Numbered from the stretch's first letter, positions 110 through 45,097 are shown. The stretch is DNA of 64,000 nt from an uncultured Candidatus Saccharibacteria bacterium (GCA_964460855.1 CAYWQH010000001.1:123868-187867), one strand, 5' to 3'. Numbers and translations are program-made. Notes: generated from the sequence alone by a model not told the origin.

Positions 110-1429
110 ATGTCCGCCAATCCTCTTACCCTAACCGTCCATAAACCCAAATTCCAGGGAACAAACCTGGCTTTTGGGTATAGTTTTAAAGGCGAAAATT
201 TTATAACGACTTTTGACCTGCCCCAAGCTTTACCGGCCCAGCCTGACGGCTACATAATCAAGCTTTTAGATTGGCTGGCAGTAGCCAGTTCGTTTGGCCT
301 GTTTAATGTTGAATACTACGGGCAAATTAACTGCGAATTTCCACTGACCAAAGCCGAAACCGACTTTTTTGAGAAGCTGCTATACTTCGGCCTTGGCGAA
401 TTCCGCTACGTAAATAAAATTCCAATAGATAGTAAAACCACAGTCCGCGGCAACGGCAACCAATCTGAAGCATATGCCCAAACACCCGCCCGCCAGGTTA
501 ACCCGCTGCTGTTAAACGGCGGCGGCAAAGATGGCAGCGTTTCGGCGTTACTGCTGGCCGACGCTGGCATAAATGCGACCTGGTTCCAGCGCGGCAGTTC
601 AGCCGCCCAGCGATCTGTTGTGAGCGCCTGGAATATGCCCGATATAACAATAAAACGGACCTTGGACCCAAATCGGCGCGGCCGCAAGTTTGGCGGGCAC
701 CGCCCGATAAATGCCAGCCTGGCGCTGATATCTGTATTGTTCGCCTGCCTGGCCAATTATGATTCTGTCATCGCTTCTAACGAAGCTTCGGCCAACGAAG
801 GCAATATGGTAATCGACGGCTTTACGTTAAACCACCAGTATTCCAAGTCTTTGGAATTCGAAACTGACTTTTCGACACTGCTAAAAGAATTCAACATTCC
901 GGTTAAATATTTCAGCCTGTTGCGGCCGCTGCACGAGCTGCAAATCGCAGTAATCGCTGCTAACTTGCCAGCCGAAAAACTGGGTGCTATAACTAGCTGC
1001 AACAATGGCACTGGCACCGGCCAGTGGTGCTTAAACTGCGCTAAATGCGCATTTGTAGCTTTAGTGATGACGGCCGCCGGGTCCGAAGCCGCGGCTAAAG
1101 TGTGGGGCCGGCAGGTTATTTGCGAACCGGCGCTGCGCCAGCACTTGCTGGAACTACTGGATCCGGACGTGCCAAAGCCCCTGGACTGCGTCGGCACGCT
1201 GCACGAATGCCAAATTACCGCCCAAGTAATCCTTAATAACAAATCAATTGAACTCGACGAACCGACCCGCCAGCTGCTGGCTAAATACGCTACCGGCAGC
1301 CGCCAGGAAATCCGGGAATTCATCGAAAACTTAGAACCACAGGCCATACCGGAAAATTACCAGCCAGTTATCCCGGTTATGAAACGCTATTTGCAGCAGT
1401 GGCTGGAAACCCAAGGATACTTAAAATGA
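110..1429 (+). CDS. Hypothetical PP-loop-like (adenine-nucleotide alpha-hydrolase superfamily) protein with a CxxCxxC cluster
   Basis: 439-aa ORF. LLLNGGGKDGSVSALL resembles the SGGxDS PP-loop, and QWCLNCAKC is a C-x2-C-x2-C cluster like the QueC zinc site. The stop overlaps the next start (ATGA at 1426-1429). The family call rests on motifs only. Confidence 0.5.
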   Translation: MSANPLTLTVHKPKFQGTNLAFGYSFKGENFITTFDLPQALPAQPDGYIIKLLDWLAVASSFGLFNVEYYGQINCEFPLTKAETDFFEKLLYFGLGEFRYVNKIPIDSKTTVRGNGNQSEAYAQTPARQVNPLLLNGGGKDGSVSALLLADAGINATWFQRGSSAAQRSVVSAWNMPDITIKRTLDPNRRGRKFGGHRPINASLALISVLFACLANYDSVIASNEASANEGNMVIDGFTLNHQYSKSLEFETDFSTLLKEFNIPVKYFSLLRPLHELQIAVIAANLPAEKLGAITSCNNGTGTGQWCLNCAKCAFVALVMTAAGSEAAAKVWGRQVICEPALRQHLLELLDPDVPKPLDCVGTLHECQITAQVILNNKSIELDEPTRQLLAKYATGSRQEIREFIENLEPQAIPENYQPVIPVMKRYLQQWLETQGYLK

Positions 1430-2004
1430 CCGATAGCTACCGTAAAAGCTGGGATAAGCACGGCGCCAGCCCCAAAGCGTTGCAGTGGAATAGCTACAAA
1501 TCCATGGCTGTAAGGTACAAGGAACTTGTAGCCAGCCTACCGGTAGACGGACATACAGTTCTTGATGCCGGCTGCGGTATGGGCGATTTGCTGCCATTTC
1601 TTTATGCCAAATCCGATAATTTTGACTATACCGGCATGGACATTACACCGGAATTTATCGACATCGCTAAAAAACGCTACGACGGCCATAAGTTTGTGAC
1701 CGGCAACGTGTTTGGAGCAGAGCTAGACGAAAAATTTGATATAGTTATTTGCTGCGGCGCGCTAAACGCTTTTTCTGACAACTGGCTGGCCGAGCGGTCC
1801 GAAAAAATCGATAAATTATTCGAACTTTGCAATGTAGCCCTGGCCTTTAATATGGCCGGTAGTTTTGCGCCTAAAGAATCGACTAAAAAAATTACTTATG
1901 CCGACGCCGGCGAGATACTAAAATTCTGCCTTACTTTGACGCCTAAAGTAGTTATTAAAAGCAACTATTCTTCGATAGATTTCACGGTAACTTTATACCG
2001 CTAA
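1426..2004 (+). CDS. Class I SAM-dependent methyltransferase
   Basis: VLDAGCGMGDL is a glycine-rich SAM motif I, followed by an acidic residue and a DIVICCGAL motif. The start was moved to the ATG at 1426, which overlaps the upstream stop (translational coupling). Confidence 0.8.
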   Translation: MTDSYRKSWDKHGASPKALQWNSYKSMAVRYKELVASLPVDGHTVLDAGCGMGDLLPFLYAKSDNFDYTGMDITPEFIDIAKKRYDGHKFVTGNVFGAELDEKFDIVICCGALNAFSDNWLAERSEKIDKLFELCNVALAFNMAGSFAPKESTKKITYADAGEILKFCLTLTPKVVIKSNYSSIDFTVTLYR

Positions 2005-2005
2005 G

Positions 2006-2122
2006 CTATTTATTGGCGCTGGATACCCGCCAATAGGCTAAACCGACCACGGCGACCACTATAAATAGCAATAGCACTATCATAGTTATAAAACCTTGGG
2101 CGTTAGGCTTACGCTTAGTCAT
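2006..2122 (-). CDS. Possible 38-aa small membrane protein (MTKRKPNAQGFITMIVLLLFIVVAVVGLAYWRVSSANK)
   Basis: Hand-translated ORF below the track cutoff. It has a basic N-terminus plus one hydrophobic helix. The SD is weak. Confidence 0.3.
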   Translation of the reverse strand: MTKRKPNAQGFITMIVLLLFIVVAVVGLAYWRVSSANK

Positions 2123-4159: not shown

Positions 4160-4501
4160 TTAACGGGCGGCTTGGACCTTGCCCTTGTCCAGTTCCATTC
4201 CCAGCCACTTTTGGGCGCTTCTAGCGGTTTTCACTACCGGCACAGCCTCTAATAAGAACGCCCGGTAACTATGTACTTTTTTAACTTCTTTTTCTACGGC
4301 ATCGAAAAGGTCTACACGGCTGGACATACACATCATTACTTCATTATGCGTTTCTATGCTACCTAGCATAAGGTAATCGGTTTTTACGGCGAACTGTTTT
4401 GCGCAGCCAATTAATTTAGCTTCCAATAAGATGTTGGCAATAGTCTCGGCTTCTGCCTGGTCGGCACACGTTAGCCAAATTTGACAAAATTGTTGCGACA
4501 A
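4160..4501 (-). CDS. cutA: CutA-like divalent-cation tolerance protein
   Basis: 113 aa. It aligns by eye along E. coli CutA (IWLTCADQAEAETIANILLEAKLIGCA ... EVMMCMSS ... HSYRAFLLEAVPV ... KWL). Confidence 0.6.
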   Translation of the reverse strand: MSQQFCQIWLTCADQAEAETIANILLEAKLIGCAKQFAVKTDYLMLGSIETHNEVMMCMSSRVDLFDAVEKEVKKVHSYRAFLLEAVPVVKTARSAQKWLGMELDKGKVQAAR

Positions 4502-4542
4502 AAGCCGACCTCCTCATGCATTCTATTTTAATATATTTGCCG

Positions 4543-5025
4543 CTAGTTTTCTGGCGCTTTCTGAAAACTTAATCCAAGTTGGTTTTGCACTTTGGCAAAT
4601 GCAAATGCTTGTAACAGCGGTCCGATTTGGCCAATATTATGGTGGTTGGCAACTTCCGTTTCAGAAATTAAAGTCCGCTGGCCTGTCTTATCGTCAACTT
4701 TATAGCGGCGCTCCAAATATTTTACTTCGCCTGTATCAGTCCATATAAATTCGGGATGCAATGCTATGCCAGTAGCTTTATATGGCACGTTTACTAGTTC
4801 GATAGAATTAACGCTTTCCGCATCAGAACCAGCAATATGACGGGTTAAAACCATAATGTTAACAGGTTCATTGTATGAGTGCCAGGCTATTAGCAAATTG
4901 GCGCCATTTACATGCTCGCCGTCAAATATTTGGCTTATTTTTTTGCCCCAATTTTTTAATTCAAGCTGGTCGGCTTTTTTGGGCGGGCTGGATAAGACTT
5001 CTGGCCTTTCTCTTTGGACGCTCAT
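4543..5025 (-). CDS. Hypothetical protein (160 aa)
   Basis: The ORF overlaps the upstream RHH gene by 4 nt. No motif recognised. Confidence 0.55.
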   Translation of the reverse strand: MSVQRERPEVLSSPPKKADQLELKNWGKKISQIFDGEHVNGANLLIAWHSYNEPVNIMVLTRHIAGSDAESVNSIELVNVPYKATGIALHPEFIWTDTGEVKYLERRYKVDDKTGQRTLISETEVANHHNIGQIGPLLQAFAFAKVQNQLGLSFQKAPEN

Positions 5026-21870: not shown

Positions 21871-21902
21871 AGTAGTCACAAAGTAACCAAATCTCTACCT
21901 TT

Positions 21903-21930
21903 AAAAAACTCCACGCAAGTGGAGTTTTTT
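21903..21930. terminator. Bidirectional intrinsic terminator
   Basis: AAAAAA-actccac-gcaa-gtggagt-TTTTTT. Confidence 0.8.
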
Positions 21931-21934
21931 ATTT

Positions 21935-22105
21935 AAAGCTCACTTAGACCAAGCAGACCTAACATCAAAATAAATTTGATAGCGGTCTGCTTTTTCGGCG
22001 CATTACTGCGTCAAAAGCTCCAGAGCTCATTCACGGTACGTCTGTGTACCGTTCTTTCCGCGCTTCGCTTTTTCCTTGTACTGCATCCGAATCTAAGCGA
22101 GCTTT
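21935..22105 (-). ncRNA. Structured intergenic RNA element, copy A (171 nt), unnamed family; strand tentative
   Basis: A 14-bp closing helix (21935-48/22092-105) encloses three further helices: hairpin 21951-59/21984-92, helix TTCGG/CCGAA (21994-98/22087-91) and hairpin 22033-39/22046-52. The blocks GGCGCATTACTGCGTCA and TTCCTTGTACTGCATCC are shared with 28689-28860. The A x C mismatch becomes U-G on the minus strand. Confidence 0.6.
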
Positions 22106-22111
22106 GCGCGT

Positions 22112-22690
22112 TTAGCCGAGATCAATTAAGTGGCGTTTGGTGAGCCAGTGGACGCCCCAGGCTATAGCGCACAGCGTGCCGCTGGCAATTGCCACTAATA
22201 CGCTAAGGCCGGCTAAATCCGGCGTCCAACGGGGGCTGACAAAATCGAACTTATACAAATCGTCCGGCACCGGCTGCTGCTGGATGGCATGGCTGGTTAC
22301 GTACTGCTGAATGCATGGTACGCGGGTGCGCCCCGAAAACGCCGTAGAATTTTGCTGCTCGCAATAATGCTGGGCATCGGTGTAAATCTGGCTGTTTTGG
22401 GCATCAACTTTGGCTTTTTCGGCAGCCGTTAAGCGTTCGTAGCGGTACTTAAGTTGGATGGGCGGCCGGATAGCGTTTTTACCGCTGGCCGGGTCGGTGT
22501 TCATATGGCTGTAAATGTATTCGCGTAAGTTGCGCAGGGCCGTTTCTACATCGCCGTTATTTTTATCGGCCTCGTACACCTTGTTGCGCAGCTCAATCAT
22601 ATGCAAATTATTAGCCCGCAGCGCCGACACGGCAATAACCGAGCTCAGAATAAAGACCAGCAGCAGGATGTAGCGCATCGAGTATTTCAT
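22112..22690 (-). CDS. Membrane protein, hypothetical
   Basis: N-terminal signal/TM and C-terminal TM helix. The start was moved to the ATG at 22690. Confidence 0.55.
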   Translation of the reverse strand: MKYSMRYILLLVFILSSVIAVSALRANNLHMIELRNKVYEADKNNGDVETALRNLREYIYSHMNTDPASGKNAIRPPIQLKYRYERLTAAEKAKVDAQNSQIYTDAQHYCEQQNSTAFSGRTRVPCIQQYVTSHAIQQQPVPDDLYKFDFVSPRWTPDLAGLSVLVAIASGTLCAIAWGVHWLTKRHLIDLG

Positions 22691-26524: not shown

Positions 26525-28648
26525 CTAGTAATAATACCACTTATCGACTCCGCCAATATTCGACACATCCTTTATCTTCATTGGATCGCCGCCCTGCAAA
26601 CTCAATACATAATCGGCGGTTTCGTCAGTGTTGGATACGCGGTAAGTAATATAGTCGCCGGTTAGCCAGCGCACCGGGCCATTAAGGCCGGCTTTGGTTA
26701 ACAATACCTTGTCGGTGCCGCCCTGGGTATCGCGCAATATCAACACCCCCTTGCCGTCGCGCTGGTCGACCCATAGCGCTTTGGAGTGGTCGTCGTTATC
26801 GACGAATACTTTGGTTTTTAGCTGGGCCGGCGGGCCGTTAGCTTTGGTGGGTGCCGAGCCGCCGAGCGTGTAGTTATACCAGGTTTGCTGCACCGAAATA
26901 GCCAGTTTGTCATAGTCTACCCGGAAAATATTCCAGGTTTCCTGGTCGAGTACGGACTTTAAATTACTGCCATCTGGATTAACAACGAACAACTTATTAT
27001 TATCGGGATTTTGCGAGTACGTATTACTAGGAGCAAAATAAATTTTGCCGCTGGCGCTTAGCACGTCGTTAAAGTAATTGGCGCTGGCAATTTTTTTGGA
27101 CTCGTCGGCAACCGTATCGTAGGTCATTAACTTTTGGCGGTTGGGGTCGGCGGCGCTGGCGCCTTGGGCGACGGCCACATAAACGATCCGGTCTCCGTAC
27201 CAATCTATAATTTGCACCCGCTCAGACTGGGCGATTTTTTGGCTTTCGCCGGTTGCGACGTTAATGATGTATAGGCCGCTGAGCAGAAAGCCGTCGCTAT
27301 TGCGCTGGCCGTCACGGGTGGTAACTACGGCAACTTGCTTGCCGGCCGGCTGCGGCGCCAAAACCATATTGTCGCTTTCCTGCCCGGTACCTGGCATCAG
27401 TAATTGTTCGTTTTTACCGTCCGCGTCAATTTTATATACGTCATAGCGTCCGCTGCGGTTACTGACAAAAAAGTGTTTTTTAGCCGGTACCATGGCTACC
27501 GGCATTTCGGTTTTCTGGCTGGAGGCAATGTGCAAGTTTTCGTCGCGGTATTTATCGTAAGTTAGTTTTACGTCGATGGCGTCATCGTTGGTGGTATCCA
27601 GCACCAGCACTATTTTGCCGTTTTTATCGGCTACGGCGTTGCCGTCGCCGCTGGAGGCTTCGGCCCCGGCCAGCGGTTTTTTGCTGAGCCAATCAGTAAC
27701 CACAAAAGAATAGTGCGAACCGACTGCAGTTATTTGGTAGTTGCCCAGCGGGTTGCTGCCCAAACCCAATACTACTTTTTGCGATGAAGTCGCGAAGGCC
27801 CGCTTTTGTATGATAAACGTCGAGGGCCCGAGCTTTAATTTATCAAATGTAACACTGCCTTGGCTGTTGGTGGCTTTATCTTGGCCCTGTAATAATACGT
27901 GGACATTTTTTAAAGGCTGCTGGGTTTTATCGTCTAACACGGTCATCGAAGCTTCGGCCCGGACACCGGCCGTATTTAACACGTAGTAGCGGCTGCTTGG
28001 GACGGTGCCGGCAGCTACGATTGCCGCTAATAATAATAAAAATGTTGCCCAGCGGGCCGGCGAACTGTGCCACCATACCGCGAAAAAGCGGTTAATATGG
28101 TCAGCCAGTGATTTTTTGGGCTCTGGCTGGGCGGCTTCTTCTAGTGTTAAATCTTCGTGGGCCAGCAGGGCGTCGCCGTTTTCGCTTTCGACGGAATGGA
28201 TGGCTTCTTCGAGGTCCTGGTCGTGCTCGTCTGCGGCCGACGGCAAATCTTCGTCCGGCGCATCTTCTACGGCTTCGGTTTCACCGGCTTCTTCGGCGTT
28301 CTCCTCTTCGGGCGCGTCATCTGCCGCTTCGGCAGGTGTTTCGGCGTCAGCTTCCGGTTCTTCAACTGTCTCTTCAACCGGCTCTGGCGGTTCCTCATTT
28401 TTTTTAGGCTCGTCCTCTTTTATGGGGTCCGGGCCTTCGTTCTCCTTGCCTTCACCCTTAGGTTCGGCAACTTCCGGATCTTCTTCGTGGTCTGTTTTTA
28501 CTTTTATGGTCTTGGGTTGTTTTTCAATATTATCAGCAGCCTCTTCGGCAATTTGCTCAATTGTGTCAGGATCGGGGTCCGCGCCTAATTTGCCCTCGGG
28601 TTTTTGGTCTTCTGGCTCGTCGGCGTGGTTTATATTTATTTTCGGCAT
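26525..28648 (-). CDS. Membrane-anchored protein: acidic disordered N-tail, TM helix, large beta-rich ectodomain
   Basis: 707 aa. An E/D/P-rich stretch of about 190 aa is followed by a TM helix (WATFLLLLAAIVAAGTV) and then beta-propeller-like repeats. Confidence 0.6.
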   Translation of the reverse strand: MPKININHADEPEDQKPEGKLGADPDPDTIEQIAEEAADNIEKQPKTIKVKTDHEEDPEVAEPKGEGKENEGPDPIKEDEPKKNEEPPEPVEETVEEPEADAETPAEAADDAPEEENAEEAGETEAVEDAPDEDLPSAADEHDQDLEEAIHSVESENGDALLAHEDLTLEEAAQPEPKKSLADHINRFFAVWWHSSPARWATFLLLLAAIVAAGTVPSSRYYVLNTAGVRAEASMTVLDDKTQQPLKNVHVLLQGQDKATNSQGSVTFDKLKLGPSTFIIQKRAFATSSQKVVLGLGSNPLGNYQITAVGSHYSFVVTDWLSKKPLAGAEASSGDGNAVADKNGKIVLVLDTTNDDAIDVKLTYDKYRDENLHIASSQKTEMPVAMVPAKKHFFVSNRSGRYDVYKIDADGKNEQLLMPGTGQESDNMVLAPQPAGKQVAVVTTRDGQRNSDGFLLSGLYIINVATGESQKIAQSERVQIIDWYGDRIVYVAVAQGASAADPNRQKLMTYDTVADESKKIASANYFNDVLSASGKIYFAPSNTYSQNPDNNKLFVVNPDGSNLKSVLDQETWNIFRVDYDKLAISVQQTWYNYTLGGSAPTKANGPPAQLKTKVFVDNDDHSKALWVDQRDGKGVLILRDTQGGTDKVLLTKAGLNGPVRWLTGDYITYRVSNTDETADYVLSLQGGDPMKIKDVSNIGGVDKWYYY

Positions 28649-28688
28649 AAATAATTAGTTGAATAACCTATAGCAATTAGTCTATCAC

Positions 28689-28860
28689 GAACGCCTTCCG
28701 CACCGCCCCTTATAAAAATTGGAGCAAGTCCAGACTTTTTAAGTGGCTTTTGGCGCATTACTTCGTCAGGGTTTCCGCTACTCCTTCACCGTACATTCCC
28801 GTACGGCTCAGTCCGTTGCTCACCCCTTCCTTGTACTGCATCCAAATGCGAAACGCGTTC
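28689..28860 (-). ncRNA. Structured intergenic RNA element, copy B (172 nt), same family as 21935-22105; strand tentative
   Basis: Closing helix 28689-702/28847-860, helix TTTGG/CCAAA (28749-53/28842-46) and hairpin 28789-94/28801-06. Long blocks are identical to copy A, and paired positions show compensatory changes. Confidence 0.6.
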
Positions 28861-28869
28861 CAACGATGG

Positions 28870-30828
28870 CTATTTAATGCCGTCCCTTAACAATCCGCCC
28901 CACTCAACGAACGTAAAGCCGTTGCGGGCCGGTGCCGTAAAGTGCTGGGGGTTCAAGCTTACCGGCTGGTTCAGGCCTTCAGAGTCTAAGAATACCCTGA
29001 TGACGGTGTCAGGCGCCGGAGTTATATGCAGCGGCGCCAGTTCGTTCATTTGCCTTGTGGTCAGCCAAGTCAGTTTTACGTAGGGTGAGGTTGGAAGTTT
29101 TGCTTGCCAGAAAGCCATAAAATCAGTCTGCTCCTTGGCATTTAAGCCAAGCTGCGTCATTTGCATCCTAAGTGTAGGCAAAAGCTCTGATTGGCTTACA
29201 ACAACGCCGGTTTTGGAAACGTCTGGGTATATACCGTTGCCGTAGCCTTCCCAGAAAAGAGAACCGTAACTATGGCCCTGGTAATTTAGCTGGCCGCTAG
29301 GCTGGGCTAGAACGTTAAACCAGCCATTGCCGTAAAATGGATCGCTTTTAACTACCCGGGCATCAACTTCAACATTTACGTTAGTTGTAACTTTTGGATA
29401 CAAGTAAATAACTGGCTTGCCGCAACCGCCAACAACCGCAAAACGCGAATTTATCATCACCTGGTATTGTCCCAAGCCGTCTTTTACCAAAATAATAGCG
29501 TGTTTATCCAGGTACTGCTGGGCTGTCTGGCCAAGAATAAGATCGGTTCGGATACTGCCGTCAATATCTTTGGTTAGATCCACATACTCTTTATAAAATG
29601 TTGATTCAAAGGGTATTGAGCTTGATTTAGCCTGGTAAATATTATCGGACCCCGATTTTCCCGCAACCGCCAAATCACTATCTTTTACATTTAAGGCAAT
29701 TATATTTGAACTGCCTTCGCCGCACCCGGAAGGTTGCCGTATATAGTCATCTTTATTGGCAGAACCGTCACTCCAGTTAATGTTTGCCGTACTGAGAGTT
29801 TCTATTCCCTTTTTGGTGGTAGTAAAAGTTAAATTTGATCCAACACGGTAAATGACCGTGCGAAAATCCTGCCTTAATAATATATAGTAGCTTTGCTCTG
29901 TGACTGCATCTTTCTTAGAAACAACTTTGTAGATTTTGCCATTAGCGCCGGTTGCCGCTAGTGTTACTTCCGAGGTAGAGTTTACGTCTTTCTTGGTGGG
30001 GTCAAGGTTAACAGCACCGGCTGTAAAAGTATTAGGTTCCGGTGTCTCTAAAACGTTTGCAACGTTATTAAGTTCCAGCTTATCTTTTATGGCTAATTCA
30101 GGGATTTTCGTTGTCGTATCTTGCTTAACCCCTACTGCCAGTTTTGGGCCAACGTATTCACCTGTATCGTATTTGCCGGTTTTATCATCATATTTCGTAT
30201 ACCAGCCAAGGGACTGGTCTTTTATGATATACGTCGCGTCCGGTTTCTTGATGACTAAACCAGTGGAGCCGTCGAGCCCGAAAGCTATGTCTACAGTAAT
30301 TACCGGGTAGCCTTCTTTAGTCTTGCCAACCTGATAAAAAGTTACTGCGCCGTCTGCGGGATTTAGGTTATCGGGATCGTTAAATAGTTTTTGGTCGGGG
30401 AGTTTGGTGGCAGTTTTAGCCCAAACGATGCCGCTGGTGGCAGGCGATTGGTCGGCCGTGGTGCTGCTATTGGCGGTTTTATTGGAAGTAATGTGAGCGG
30501 GCTTCTCTTTTTTAATGAAATATAAGTAACCAGCCACGGCTGCCAGTATCAGTAAGACAATCAGCAAAAAGATTAATAACCACTTAATTTTGGCCCGCCG
30601 CGGGTTGCGGATCTGGCTCATCGAAGTCATAACCGGAAAATCGTCGGTTTTAGGCGTCGGATTAGCTGGGGGTTCGCTTGTTGGCTCAGTTTCGACAGCC
30701 GGTTTAGGGTGCTCCGAAGGTGCTACGGTCGGGGAAGGCTCGGTTTCAGCCGCATCAACCCGCTCAATTAACTTATCTTTTTCGTGTTCGTGGTTGCCGG
30801 TTTCCGGCTCATTCTTAGGCGGTTCCAT
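28870..30828 (-). CDS. Membrane-anchored extracellular protein (652 aa)
   Basis: Pro/Glu-rich N-tail, a TM helix and a large ectodomain. No motif recognised. Confidence 0.6.
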   Translation of the reverse strand: MEPPKNEPETGNHEHEKDKLIERVDAAETEPSPTVAPSEHPKPAVETEPTSEPPANPTPKTDDFPVMTSMSQIRNPRRAKIKWLLIFLLIVLLILAAVAGYLYFIKKEKPAHITSNKTANSSTTADQSPATSGIVWAKTATKLPDQKLFNDPDNLNPADGAVTFYQVGKTKEGYPVITVDIAFGLDGSTGLVIKKPDATYIIKDQSLGWYTKYDDKTGKYDTGEYVGPKLAVGVKQDTTTKIPELAIKDKLELNNVANVLETPEPNTFTAGAVNLDPTKKDVNSTSEVTLAATGANGKIYKVVSKKDAVTEQSYYILLRQDFRTVIYRVGSNLTFTTTKKGIETLSTANINWSDGSANKDDYIRQPSGCGEGSSNIIALNVKDSDLAVAGKSGSDNIYQAKSSSIPFESTFYKEYVDLTKDIDGSIRTDLILGQTAQQYLDKHAIILVKDGLGQYQVMINSRFAVVGGCGKPVIYLYPKVTTNVNVEVDARVVKSDPFYGNGWFNVLAQPSGQLNYQGHSYGSLFWEGYGNGIYPDVSKTGVVVSQSELLPTLRMQMTQLGLNAKEQTDFMAFWQAKLPTSPYVKLTWLTTRQMNELAPLHITPAPDTVIRVFLDSEGLNQPVSLNPQHFTAPARNGFTFVEWGGLLRDGIK

Positions 30829-43514: not shown

Positions 43515-43658
43515 TGCTAACAAAACCCGGTCCTCAAACCGCTCACGCGCGGATAGTGCCTGCCCTGAGCTGCACGACGAGTCTAGCATCTCCGGCAGGC
43601 ACTAAACCGGCTCCGCTAGGGTAAAGGGTAAGTTTTCGGCCCAGGTTTCGTTAGCATT
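43513..43658. repeat. Structured inverted-repeat element filling the convergent intergenic gap (146 nt)
   Basis: The 15-bp outer helix aatgctaacaaaacc/ggtttcgttagcatt abuts both stop codons. The inner perfect 10-bp helix is agtgcctgcc/ggcaggcact (43555-64/43594-603). Confidence 0.5.
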
Positions 43659-44956
43659 TAGCCTTTGGTTTGCCTATTTACATTTGCAGCACGCTTATTA
43701 ATAAATGAATCGCGGGACTGCTTATACTTAATCTCAGTTCCGAGGCGGTGCACATATTGGGCCAAGTTTTCCGGTTGCTTCGTTAAAACTTTTTTAGTGG
43801 AAGGTACCATAACATTTTTGCCGGTTTGGCGGTTAACTGTATGTTTGCAATCGACGCAGTGTAATATTCCTTTGTCGTATAAATTTTCTGGAAGGTCGAC
43901 TATGTTATTGCAGTTGGGGCAAGTGACGCATTTAAGCATGTCTTGTTTGGTGAAGTAACCTAATTTATCTGAGATTCTTTGGCCGCCCAGTACTGTATCG
44001 CAGCCAAAGAATTCGGTGCCGGCTTCCATAACGCCGGCGGCCGCGATCGATTCGGCCAGACTTTCCAAGTCCTGCCAGGTGCCGTCGAGTTTCCGCTTGT
44101 AACTCGAAACTATATCGCGGCGCAGCTGTTCACTGAGCCCCGGCCAATTTTCAGGCGGCTGGTACAGTGCTATAGAGTCTAAACCGCTCATCAGCGATTC
44201 CAATAATTCCGGGTGGCTGAGAACGAACCGGTAGCTGTCAGGCCCCTGCTTTGGTGCCAGGCGGTCGGCCAACTGGTAATCGGCAATGCCAAGGACTACC
44301 GGACTGTTTAAAATGTCGATGGTCGAGGCGTCTTGCGCCAGTGCGATATTAAATTCCGATTGGTAAGTCTGTGCTACGTCAGCGGCGCTGAGGCCGTCGA
44401 TGCTGCGCGAAAAAAGCCGCAGTCCGCCTTGGCCGTCGAATACGCTGACCCGCAAAAAACCGCGCCGCAGTTTTGGGTTCCGGCCTAAAAGTTTTAAATC
44501 GTCGTCGCTGAACAAATCAGAACCGCACAGAGAAAACGTTACTAAAGTTGCTTCTATGCCTTGCTCTAAAATACGTCTTTGGAGCAATGATTCCTCATAT
44601 TCTGCTTCGGCTACTCTTATATATGCACTTAAATTAGGGTTTTGGGCGGCGCGTTCGCGGGCATATGCTACACCGTTGCTATGTAATTCCAGCCAATCTA
44701 CCGGCAAGCCTTGTTCGTCGTGGCAAACCATTTGGTCGCCGGCCAGCCAAAAATCCAAATCGGTCCGCACCTGGCCGTCCATCATTTCACTGAGGTACAG
44801 GCTTTCCTGGCGAAAAACATATTCCCGGGCCCGGCTGTCGCTCAAACCTTCGTGCAATTCACGCAAAGTCCGCGCCGAATCGGCCTGGCGTTTTAAATTA
44901 AGGTTTTCAGTTACCGTTTCCAAAAAAATACCCCTGCTTTTAAGCAAGGGCAACAA
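43658..44956 (-). CDS. Hypothetical protein with a C-terminal zinc ribbon (CxxC...CxxC)
   Basis: CVTCPNCNNIVDLPENLYDKGILHCVDCKH. The start is uncertain: TTG in the track, with an alternative TTG at METVTEN preceded by GGGG. Confidence 0.55.
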   Translation of the reverse strand: MLPLLKSRGIFLETVTENLNLKRQADSARTLRELHEGLSDSRAREYVFRQESLYLSEMMDGQVRTDLDFWLAGDQMVCHDEQGLPVDWLELHSNGVAYARERAAQNPNLSAYIRVAEAEYEESLLQRRILEQGIEATLVTFSLCGSDLFSDDDLKLLGRNPKLRRGFLRVSVFDGQGGLRLFSRSIDGLSAADVAQTYQSEFNIALAQDASTIDILNSPVVLGIADYQLADRLAPKQGPDSYRFVLSHPELLESLMSGLDSIALYQPPENWPGLSEQLRRDIVSSYKRKLDGTWQDLESLAESIAAAGVMEAGTEFFGCDTVLGGQRISDKLGYFTKQDMLKCVTCPNCNNIVDLPENLYDKGILHCVDCKHTVNRQTGKNVMVPSTKKVLTKQPENLAQYVHRLGTEIKYKQSRDSFINKRAANVNRQTKG

Positions 44957-45097
44957 TAACTGGCGGCTCTTGCTCGAGAGACTTTACAACTGTTTCGGAC
45001 TTTAACCGTTGCGGCACAGCGTTAGAATTTCACTAACTTCCAGTTTGGTTTATTAAAGTGCTTTCATGATAGCACAAGCCATGACAAAATATTGGTT

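Follow-up and report, generated by a model that had tools for sequence, protein, structure and literature searches.

Copy B, a structured element that lies between two genes for anchored proteins in the DNA of an uncultured Candidatus Saccharibacteria bacterium, is probably one of two copies of a dispersed, non-coding and non-autonomous mobile element of the MITE type in the window, that is, in the whole 64,000-nt stretch that we analyzed. The element belongs to a multi-copy family whose helices covary and whose fold is specific to one strand, and which occurs independently of orientation and of the neighboring genes. The occurrence of copy B is beyond chance, since the same core with covarying helices was observed at at least 240 other loci. 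From the sequence comparisons, a role specific to the surrounding envelope operon is not supported.

The two copies in the window

Copy B and its flanking genes are all on the minus strand. The upstream gene (28870-30828) encodes a 652-aa membrane-anchored protein with no Pfam match. The downstream gene (26525-28648) encodes a 707-aa protein whose CarboxypepD_reg matches are weak and below the Pfam cut-off, and it has no upstream Shine-Dalgarno word. The distance from the stop codon of the 652-aa gene to the ATG of the 707-aa gene is 221 nt. Folded whole, this gap gave a 172-nt three-way junction (28689-28860) with a predicted energy of -74.7 kcal/mol (z = -4.1), and none of 200 shuffled sequences was as stable. 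The outermost pair, 28860/28689, coincides exactly with the limits of the original prediction, which had described an element that almost fills the gap. The closing stem is GAACGC.UUUCGCAU / GUGCGGAA.GCGUUC. Arm 1 (28747-28847; core 28755-28839) is an irregular hairpin that represents the conserved motif of the family, and arm 2 (28705-28747) is a variable hairpin found only in the Saccharibacteria-type copies. In arm 1, the helix P1 (GCAGUAC/GUAAUGC) is followed by an internal loop, AAGGA / GACGnA, and by further loops that are readable as tandem G-A mismatches. A pair of GCAGUA words had been thought to be conserved in both copies. This was incorrect, as the second word of copy B is GAAGUA (acGAAGUAaugcg) and the GCAGUA form is that of copy A; the variable position is C, A or U through the family. 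The 652-aa gene ends in a TAG stop codon (28868-28870), which, together with a second TAG (28682-28684), forms the left and right 3-nt direct repeats around an inserted segment of 183 nt (28685-28867).

The gap was searched for transcription signals, and neither a promoter-like nor a terminator-like site was found. Copy B is likely to be co-transcribed with the operon, as had been anticipated, because the genes are co-oriented, the gap holds no such site, and in a relative a spacer of only 39 nt separates the orthologs. Neither a promoter nor a Shine-Dalgarno word was seen for the 707-aa gene, in agreement with the original prediction, but the missing Shine-Dalgarno word is not special, because only 14 of the 42 long ORFs of the window are preceded by one. 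Many gene starts in the window (for example 20814, 24065, 14209, 52841, 54301 and 55401) carry a TATACT/TATAAT-like hexamer that precedes the ATG by a few bases. Together with the scarcity of Shine-Dalgarno words, these hexamers suggest that leaderless mRNAs, or mRNAs with very short leaders, may be frequent in the source genome. The sole Rfam match in the window was an AdoCbl-II (cobalamin) riboswitch aptamer (49.4 bits, E = 5.6e-09) at 44981-45059 on the minus strand, upstream of an ORF at 43658-44785 on the same strand.

A second copy of the element, which had also been predicted, was recovered on the minus strand. The folded junction of copy A (21935-22105, z = -8.4; covariance-model match 21992-22092) starts 7 nt past the stop codon of a 210-aa ORF. 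Its inserted segment of 176 nt (21936-22111) lies between two TAA words, one at 22112-22114, where it serves as the 210-aa gene's stop codon, and the other at 21933-21935. Copy A lies in the 3' untranslated region, ahead of an intrinsic terminator on the minus strand (21902-21931), and no gene is downstream. The blocks GGATGCAGTACAAGGAA and GACGnAGTAATGCGCC are common to copies A and B. The two copies take similar folds, and their inner helices differ by compensatory changes. The covariance model gave exactly two matches over the window, copies A and B (108.8 and 108.2 bits), which hold by construction because both copies are in the seed alignment. The terminal stems of the two copies are unlike each other, which makes it unlikely that one end-recognizing transposase recently acted on both.

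A conserved core that folds on one strand

The family was collected with an exact pattern derived from the blocks that copies A and B have in common (GCAGTACAAGG and ACGnAGTAATGC, separated by 44-74 nt). This pattern matched at least 120 loci in species-representative genomes and at least 120 in metagenomes, in a dozen or more phyla. The genome matches listed came from Bacillota, Saccharibacteria, Parcubacteria, Pseudomonadota, Pseudomonas and its relatives, Methylotenera and other Betaproteobacteria, Verrucomicrobia, Deferribacterales, Cloacimonadota, Ignavibacteriales, Bacteroidaceae, Coriobacteriaceae, Omnitrophota, Limnocylindrales and Sphaerochaeta. The unit is 141-183 nt long, and no conserved ORF was recognized, given the covarying helices.

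The center of the family is an irregular hairpin of about 100 nt with near-invariant internal loops and covarying helices. In a hand-made structure for 18 Saccharibacteria-type copies, 92.7% of the cells could pair, compared with 21-43% when the partners were slid by 1-3 columns, and both sides had changed in 18 of the 32 pairs. The covariance model was built from these 18 copies. When 110 copies were aligned by the model, 91.7% of the cells paired, compared with 62% after shuffling and 22-40% after sliding, and both-side changes were found in 29 of the 32 pairs; these counts are biased in favor of the model, to which the alignment was fitted. The exact search pattern itself accounts for part of the near-invariance seen in the core helix. 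In copies outside the pattern the core helix does covary, with UAC/GUA replaced by CGC/GCG at locus L087 and by CAC/GUG in a plasmid copy, and the whole helix GCAGUAC/GUAAUGC is replaced by GCCAGGC/GCCUGGC in the own copy of a syntenic relative. By eye, the constant features are an asymmetric loop with AAGGM opposite RACGnA, a G-A mismatch in P1, and a G-A mismatch pair beside the apical hairpin. About 25 positions are near-invariant, and they are sited in the internal loops.

The G-U and A-C pairs were compared to determine which strand folds. G-U pairs outnumbered A-C pairs 3:1 (185 vs. 60), indicating that the motif-carrying strand is the folding one. The ratio was 24:14 in copies sense to their neighbors and 74:28 in copies antisense to them. 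Since the G-U excess is no weaker in antisense copies than in sense ones, the folded strand is a property of the element and not of host read-through.

Several variants of the unit were noted. Short variants with 68-70 nt between the core blocks and no middle helices occur at loci L049, L059, L064, L071, L015, L053 and L029, in Bacteroidaceae, Coriobacteriaceae, Sphaerochaeta, Omnitrophota, Undibacterium and an uncultured bacterium. Orphan half-elements with one core block, 3' or 5' (L049:~6620, L071:~2287, L081:~7758, L098:~4909, L119:~2501 and others), look like truncated or decayed copies. In the Bacillota MAGs at L001, L005, L010, L011, L085, L086, L094 and L106, the motif is part of a longer unit of about 260 nt (from about -125 to +45) that is conserved, has no Rfam match and includes an extra upstream module carrying GGATGAAAATGAGG...AGCTGGTTACTTAGATGCAG. 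An ORF starts 51-63 nt downstream in 6 of these 8 loci and also at L026, where the upstream module is absent. Judged by their translated N-termini, these ORFs are unrelated to one another and resemble fabZ, acpP, rsgA, flhA, a glycosidase and a phosphatase. At L057:~4390-4620, on a Saccharibacteria contig, the second-arm module ctcagcttgcaagcaggccaacgcggtgcga is present both upstream and downstream of the motif, which suggests a tandem or nested arrangement.

Reference databases were also searched for the element. Rfam 15 had no entry overlapping it in the window or at L106 (E <= 10), none matching it in 18 loci at the gathering score, and none in six loci of other subtypes (E <= 1). The pattern had 0 matches in 2.9 million viral contigs, BLAST against phages gave chance matches only, and the element was absent from 5,426 E. 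coli genomes searched by BLAST. Against plasmids, BLAST gave chance matches apart from one real copy in Nitrosomonas, a diverged one (44.6 bits) on the conjugative plasmid of Nitrosomonas sp. sh817 (NZ_CP133084.1, ~67462-67561; L121). This copy lies upstream of parA amid GATAGCTATC-type repeats, and the record has no annotation there. Full-text searches with the core words found unrelated primer matches only. No description of the core was found in the searchable literature, where keywords led to the general class only, and the core is not in the text of PMC11109978 nor in one of its supplementary files.

Insertion sites and genomic neighbors

A Logan contig with the same gene order as the window (the relative, L122/L129) carries an ortholog of the 652-aa gene with 49% identity. 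The order is an L,D-transpeptidase, the ortholog, a 718-aa carboxypeptidase-regulatory-domain gene, two small genes, MscS and a Mur ligase. At the site of copy B, the gap is 39 nt in the relative vs. 221 nt in the window, and the native spacer word of the relative, TAGACTAAaTGCTAgAGGTTA, resumes in the window directly past the copy B segment. At the site of copy A, the gap is 33 nt in the relative vs. 241 nt in the window. There, the stop codon of the 210-aa ortholog (57% identity) is directly followed by the terminator, and the convergent gene is 33 nt off. By this sequence comparison, both window sites are shown to be empty in the syntenic relative, and they probably represent insertions. 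The relative has a family copy at another place (L129:662-760, 70 bits). Contigs that belong to the species of the window are broken within the element.

The family has the features of a mobile repeat, and two lineages showed 3-nt target-site duplications of the form TNA. One Verrucomicrobia MAG contained at least 10 near-identical units of about 148 nt with unrelated flanks, and the 3-nt flanks were identical at 9 of 10 insertions (TTA at eight, TGA at one). In the Methylotenera-type lineage (31 insertions), conservation is limited to the hairpin, and no promoter was found outside it. The end 3-mers matched in 13 of 28 insertions, compared with 6.2 +/- 1.9 in re-paired controls, and 0 of 2000 controls reached 13. 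These tests were anchored by lineage, the boundaries across all loci being ill-defined (RNAfold or greedy stem extension over-extends). In the window, copy B is flanked by TAG/TAG and copy A by TAA/TAA, each repeating the upstream stop codon, as read by eye with boundaries chosen after seeing the sequence. These repeats are only 3 nt long, and they fit the duplications measured in the Verrucomicrobia and Methylotenera-type lineages. The family frequently abuts stop codons, whichever its orientation. If a TNA-type target is duplicated, the stop codon stays intact, and this would explain why the family hugs such codons. The termini pair inside each copy, yet they vary between lineages. No transposase or autonomous relative was found near any of about 240 copies (~1.6 Mb of loci), and no split autonomous form, with the 5' and 3' half-cores 0.1-4 kb apart, was found in the loci.

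The genes around the element have little in common. Clustering identified no recurrent neighbor protein family in either set (at least 120 genome and at least 120 metagenome loci). The neighbors at about 240 loci were only housekeeping genes, with no transposase, reverse transcriptase or integrase, and Pfam found only ordinary housekeeping genes between paired copies. For the 53 copies with a gene called on each side, both neighbors were on the motif strand in 21 cases and both on the opposite strand in 19, and the arrangement was convergent in 12 and divergent in 1. The downstream gene was on the same strand in 33 cases and on the opposite strand in 55. In the Bacillota-type copies, orientation relative to the gene strand was 57:43. 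A correlation of the element with envelope-gene neighbors, which had been suggested as a check, was therefore not borne out: no gene family recurs among about 240 loci, either orientation is found, and there are also copies on a plasmid and within operons for tRNAs, rRNA and ribosomal proteins.

Stable-RNA genes were found next to some of the copies. About 10% of the loci had tRNA genes within 600 nt, and these were on the same strand in 10 of 12 cases from genomes and in 10 of 13 from metagenomes. At L080:196-725, four tandem copies with a 148-nt period lie between tRNA-Leu and tRNA-Gly; like those in the next three arrangements, they are on the tRNA strand. Two copies are situated between tRNA-Asp and tRNA-His (L091:3809-4017), three are downstream of tRNA-Ala (L227), and a single copy is 22-23 nt from both tRNA-Gly and tRNA-Arg at L133, L169, L225 and L229. 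One copy is just upstream of a 16S rRNA gene. In a Clostridia S10 operon (L095), a sense copy (171-256, plus strand) is located just upstream of rplC, and a diverged antisense copy (1937-2035, minus strand) is located between rplW and rplB.

The ybaB-recR spacer held orthologous single copies in six Pseudomonas-group genomes (L003, L007, L019, L063, L068 and L102). The structure of these copies is kept by compensatory changes and the flanks diverge, which suggests that they may be under selection in place and are not decaying selfish inserts. No conserved promoter was found upstream of the Pseudomonas or the Methylotenera-type copies. In the Pseudomonas oleovorans/resinovorans group, the copies are antisense to the dnaX-ybaB-recR operon and end 5-6 nt from the ybaB stop codon. 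The spacer outside the element varies and holds REP-like palindromes.

Known systems and competing explanations

Bacterial MITEs are shorter than 200 bp, with TA ends, target-site duplications, and 5' and 3' ends that pair into a long stem-loop; some of them, such as Correia and ERIC, are co-transcribed and are cut by RNase III or alter mRNA stability (PMC2229807). The element resembles Correia/NEMIS of Neisseria, ERIC/IRU of enterobacteria, RUP of pneumococcus and RPE of Rickettsia in being multi-copy, below 200 bp and without an ORF, in its end-paired stem-loop, T..A-type termini and target-site duplications, and in its intergenic position, often just past genes and in either orientation. 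Filled and empty sites were both observed. In two respects it differs. Each of the families just named is restricted to a single genus or family, and the part that is conserved in it is the terminal inverted repeat, whereas the termini of the element vary and its center is conserved across phyla, with asymmetric loops, a one-strand G-U bias and covarying helices. Furthermore, no termini shared with an autonomous IS and no matching transposase were found in ~1.6 Mb of loci.

The element also fits the category of mobile/repeat sequence candidates, to which MRSC-65-2 belongs (PMC11109978). MRSC-65-2 has a long covarying stem, many copies per genome, a distribution over diverse phyla and an inconsistent orientation, and it was judged selfish; its repeated word is UYCCGG and it is sometimes beside transposases (PMC11109978). 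In contrast, the element has the core GCAGUAC-AAGGM ... RACGnA-GUAAUGC, no transposase neighbor in about 240 loci, and a link to tRNA operons. We rejected an identity of the two because the conserved word UYCCGG differs.

The element shares with REP/REPIN sequences the property of being a hairpin-forming repeat at gene 3' ends. REP/REPINs are hairpin repeats at gene 3' ends that are rare in promoter regions and long-lasting; REPs are species-specific palindromes of 20-40 nt with a GTAG-type head, a flanked RAYT gene and no 3-nt duplication. The element showed none of these REP traits. A REP/REPIN-RAYT origin was rejected on the basis of the cross-phyla core, the lack of a REP-like unit and the lack of a recurrent Y1-transposase neighbor in about 240 loci. 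The attC sites of integrons are similar in being imperfect one-strand hairpins just past the stop codons of cassettes. They were rejected because no AAC...GTT-type end boxes were present in the ends read by eye and no cassette array or recurrent integrase was found; the copies of the element also differ in being dispersed, tRNA operons included. Derivatives of IS200/IS605 (PATE, guide-RNA scaffolds) were rejected as well, as a single hairpin spans the unit, the duplications are 3 nt, and no TnpA or TnpB is among the neighbors.

Further candidates were excluded on structural grounds or by position. An intrinsic terminator was rejected for copy B because the gap holds no terminator-like site, and for copy A because a separate terminator follows it, which is present at the empty site of the relative too. 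A riboswitch or cis-leader was rejected on the strand of the downstream gene (33 same vs. 55 opposite) and the absence of a recurring gene family. ARAGORN found no tRNA or tmRNA in the window and no cloverleaf at the element in the loci, and these classes were rejected. The SRP RNA, 5S rRNA, Y RNA, group II intron domain V, a mimic of the 23S GTPase center, complementarity to 16S rRNA, a kink-turn and the 11-nt tetraloop receptor were dropped because of the Rfam scans or too few matching bases.

A strand-specific fold in random orientation is not explained by read-through transcription. This fold with its conserved asymmetric loops, the sense bias near tRNA genes and the Pseudomonas orthologs also resist a reading as purely selfish DNA, and the preference for the sense strand in tRNA operons is a hint that the RNA product is important. 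It is conceivable, if doubtful, that the conserved core, with its ~25 near-invariant nucleotides in a 3x2-type internal loop and in loops readable as tandem G-A mismatches, is a new class of functional RNA in many phyla (a processing or ribozyme module, or a ribonucleoprotein scaffold) which spreads as a mobile RNA gene and is kept as extra units in tRNA operons. As another tentative possibility, the element may be a gene for a stable small RNA that works in trans, such as the RNA component of a ribonucleoprotein, and is cut from any carrier transcript as tRNAs are. Dispersal would then be secondary, and the window copies would be extra gene copies riding on host transcription. The element is embedded in tRNA arrays like an extra tRNA, usually on the tRNA strand (L080, L091 and the four tRNA-Gly/tRNA-Arg loci), and one copy precedes a 16S rRNA gene; its 5' end pairs with its 3' end, which is a trait of many stable RNAs. 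The ~25 near-invariant internal-loop positions, the compensatory changes in the Pseudomonas orthologs and a G-U excess irrespective of neighbor orientation point in the same direction. However, the Methylotenera-type unit has no promoter, the Pseudomonas copies have no conserved promoter upstream, half of the copies inside operons run antisense to them, the distribution within genera is patchy, and no partner gene lies nearby in about 240 loci. The near-identical copies and the target-site duplications indicate transposition. A self-cleaving ribozyme or RNase-recognition module of a new kind, by which the insert would excise from host transcripts and be harmless in operons, is very unlikely. 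The core does have invariant loop nucleotides flanked by covarying helices, in a number typical of ribozymes and aptamers, its copies are tolerated in essential, highly expressed operons (S10, tRNA arrays), and it forms tandem arrays, as do some known self-cleaving ribozymes. Nevertheless, antisense copies are equally tolerated in operons, and no similarity to an Rfam ribozyme was found in the window and L106 (E <= 10) or in six further loci (E <= 1).

We also considered whether the fold acts in single-stranded DNA, with the hairpin as the form recognized during transposition or replication, and regard this as unlikely. A strand-specific fold whose orientation is unrelated to flanking transcription, a unit that is the hairpin itself and the presence of target-site duplications would agree with such an action, and the Breaker laboratory has proposed that the structure of MRSC-65-2 is maybe relevant in DNA form (PMC11109978). 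On the other hand, the Bacillota-type orientation of only 57:43 makes a coupling to replication direction weak at best, and the tandem G-A mismatch loops (by eye) and the mostly sense copies in tRNA operons look more RNA-like. A fixed 3-nt duplication is a mark of cut-and-paste enzymes working on double-stranded ends, and to our knowledge the known single-strand transposons (IS200/IS605) make no target duplication; the 3-nt duplications of the family fit the former. A cis-regulatory role in the envelope operon, with copy B controlling the 707-aa gene as a riboswitch, an attenuator or a translational-coupling device, is highly improbable. In favor of it, copy B immediately precedes the 707-aa gene in the same orientation, and no Shine-Dalgarno word separates the two, but most long ORFs of the window lack this word anyway. 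Moreover, copy A, in a 3' untranslated region, is followed by a terminator and has no gene downstream, and many copies in the family are antisense. The absence of the element from the orthologous operon of the relative and the lack of a gene association in about 240 loci speak against any regulator of this kind and, in particular, against the translational coupling that had been suggested for the 707-aa gene. The cis-regulatory reading is thus largely refuted by the comparative sequence data.

Returning to the MITE-type mobile element, we propose that it inserted where the 652-aa gene ends, at its TAG stop codon, and that the insertion would have duplicated this codon without disrupting either reading frame. 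Copy B would now be carried on the operon mRNA as a very stable three-way junction starting 9 nt past the stop codon. Its local effect would be passive, that of a structured spacer which is perhaps cut by double-strand-specific or tRNA-type processing enzymes, and it may shield the upstream 3' end. The conserved core would serve the element itself, for propagation or with a partner in trans, and not the envelope genes. Intercistronic RNase III hairpins, such as R1.1 of phage T7, are long and irregular, have internal loops and lie between co-transcribed cistrons. These hairpins and those that stabilize mRNA 3' ends may be the nearest model for copy B locally, with the difference that they are fixed in their operons and the element is a dispersed insertion. 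By analogy with further hairpin repeats of bacteria, such as Correia and ERIC (PMC2229807), a passive role as a processable intercistronic structure is plausible. Of the functions originally suggested for copy B, that of a processing or stability signal may accordingly be retained in this passive sense, but not that of a device of the envelope operon, given that the relative lacks the element.

For genome annotation, recognizing the element avoids false operon-specific regulators, terminators and small ORFs, and the element also accounts for contig breaks in metagenome assemblies. If confirmed, it would be a very widespread structured element that is absent from Rfam 15 and is misread or unannotated in many genomes. 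It is present even in the reduced genomes of Saccharibacteria, where little non-coding DNA is tolerated. It would also provide, if confirmed, a concrete case of a mobile element that apparently uses stop codons as safe landing sites. Finally, a complex fold that is kept on one strand whatever the host transcription makes the family a good system for the question of RNA versus single-stranded DNA.
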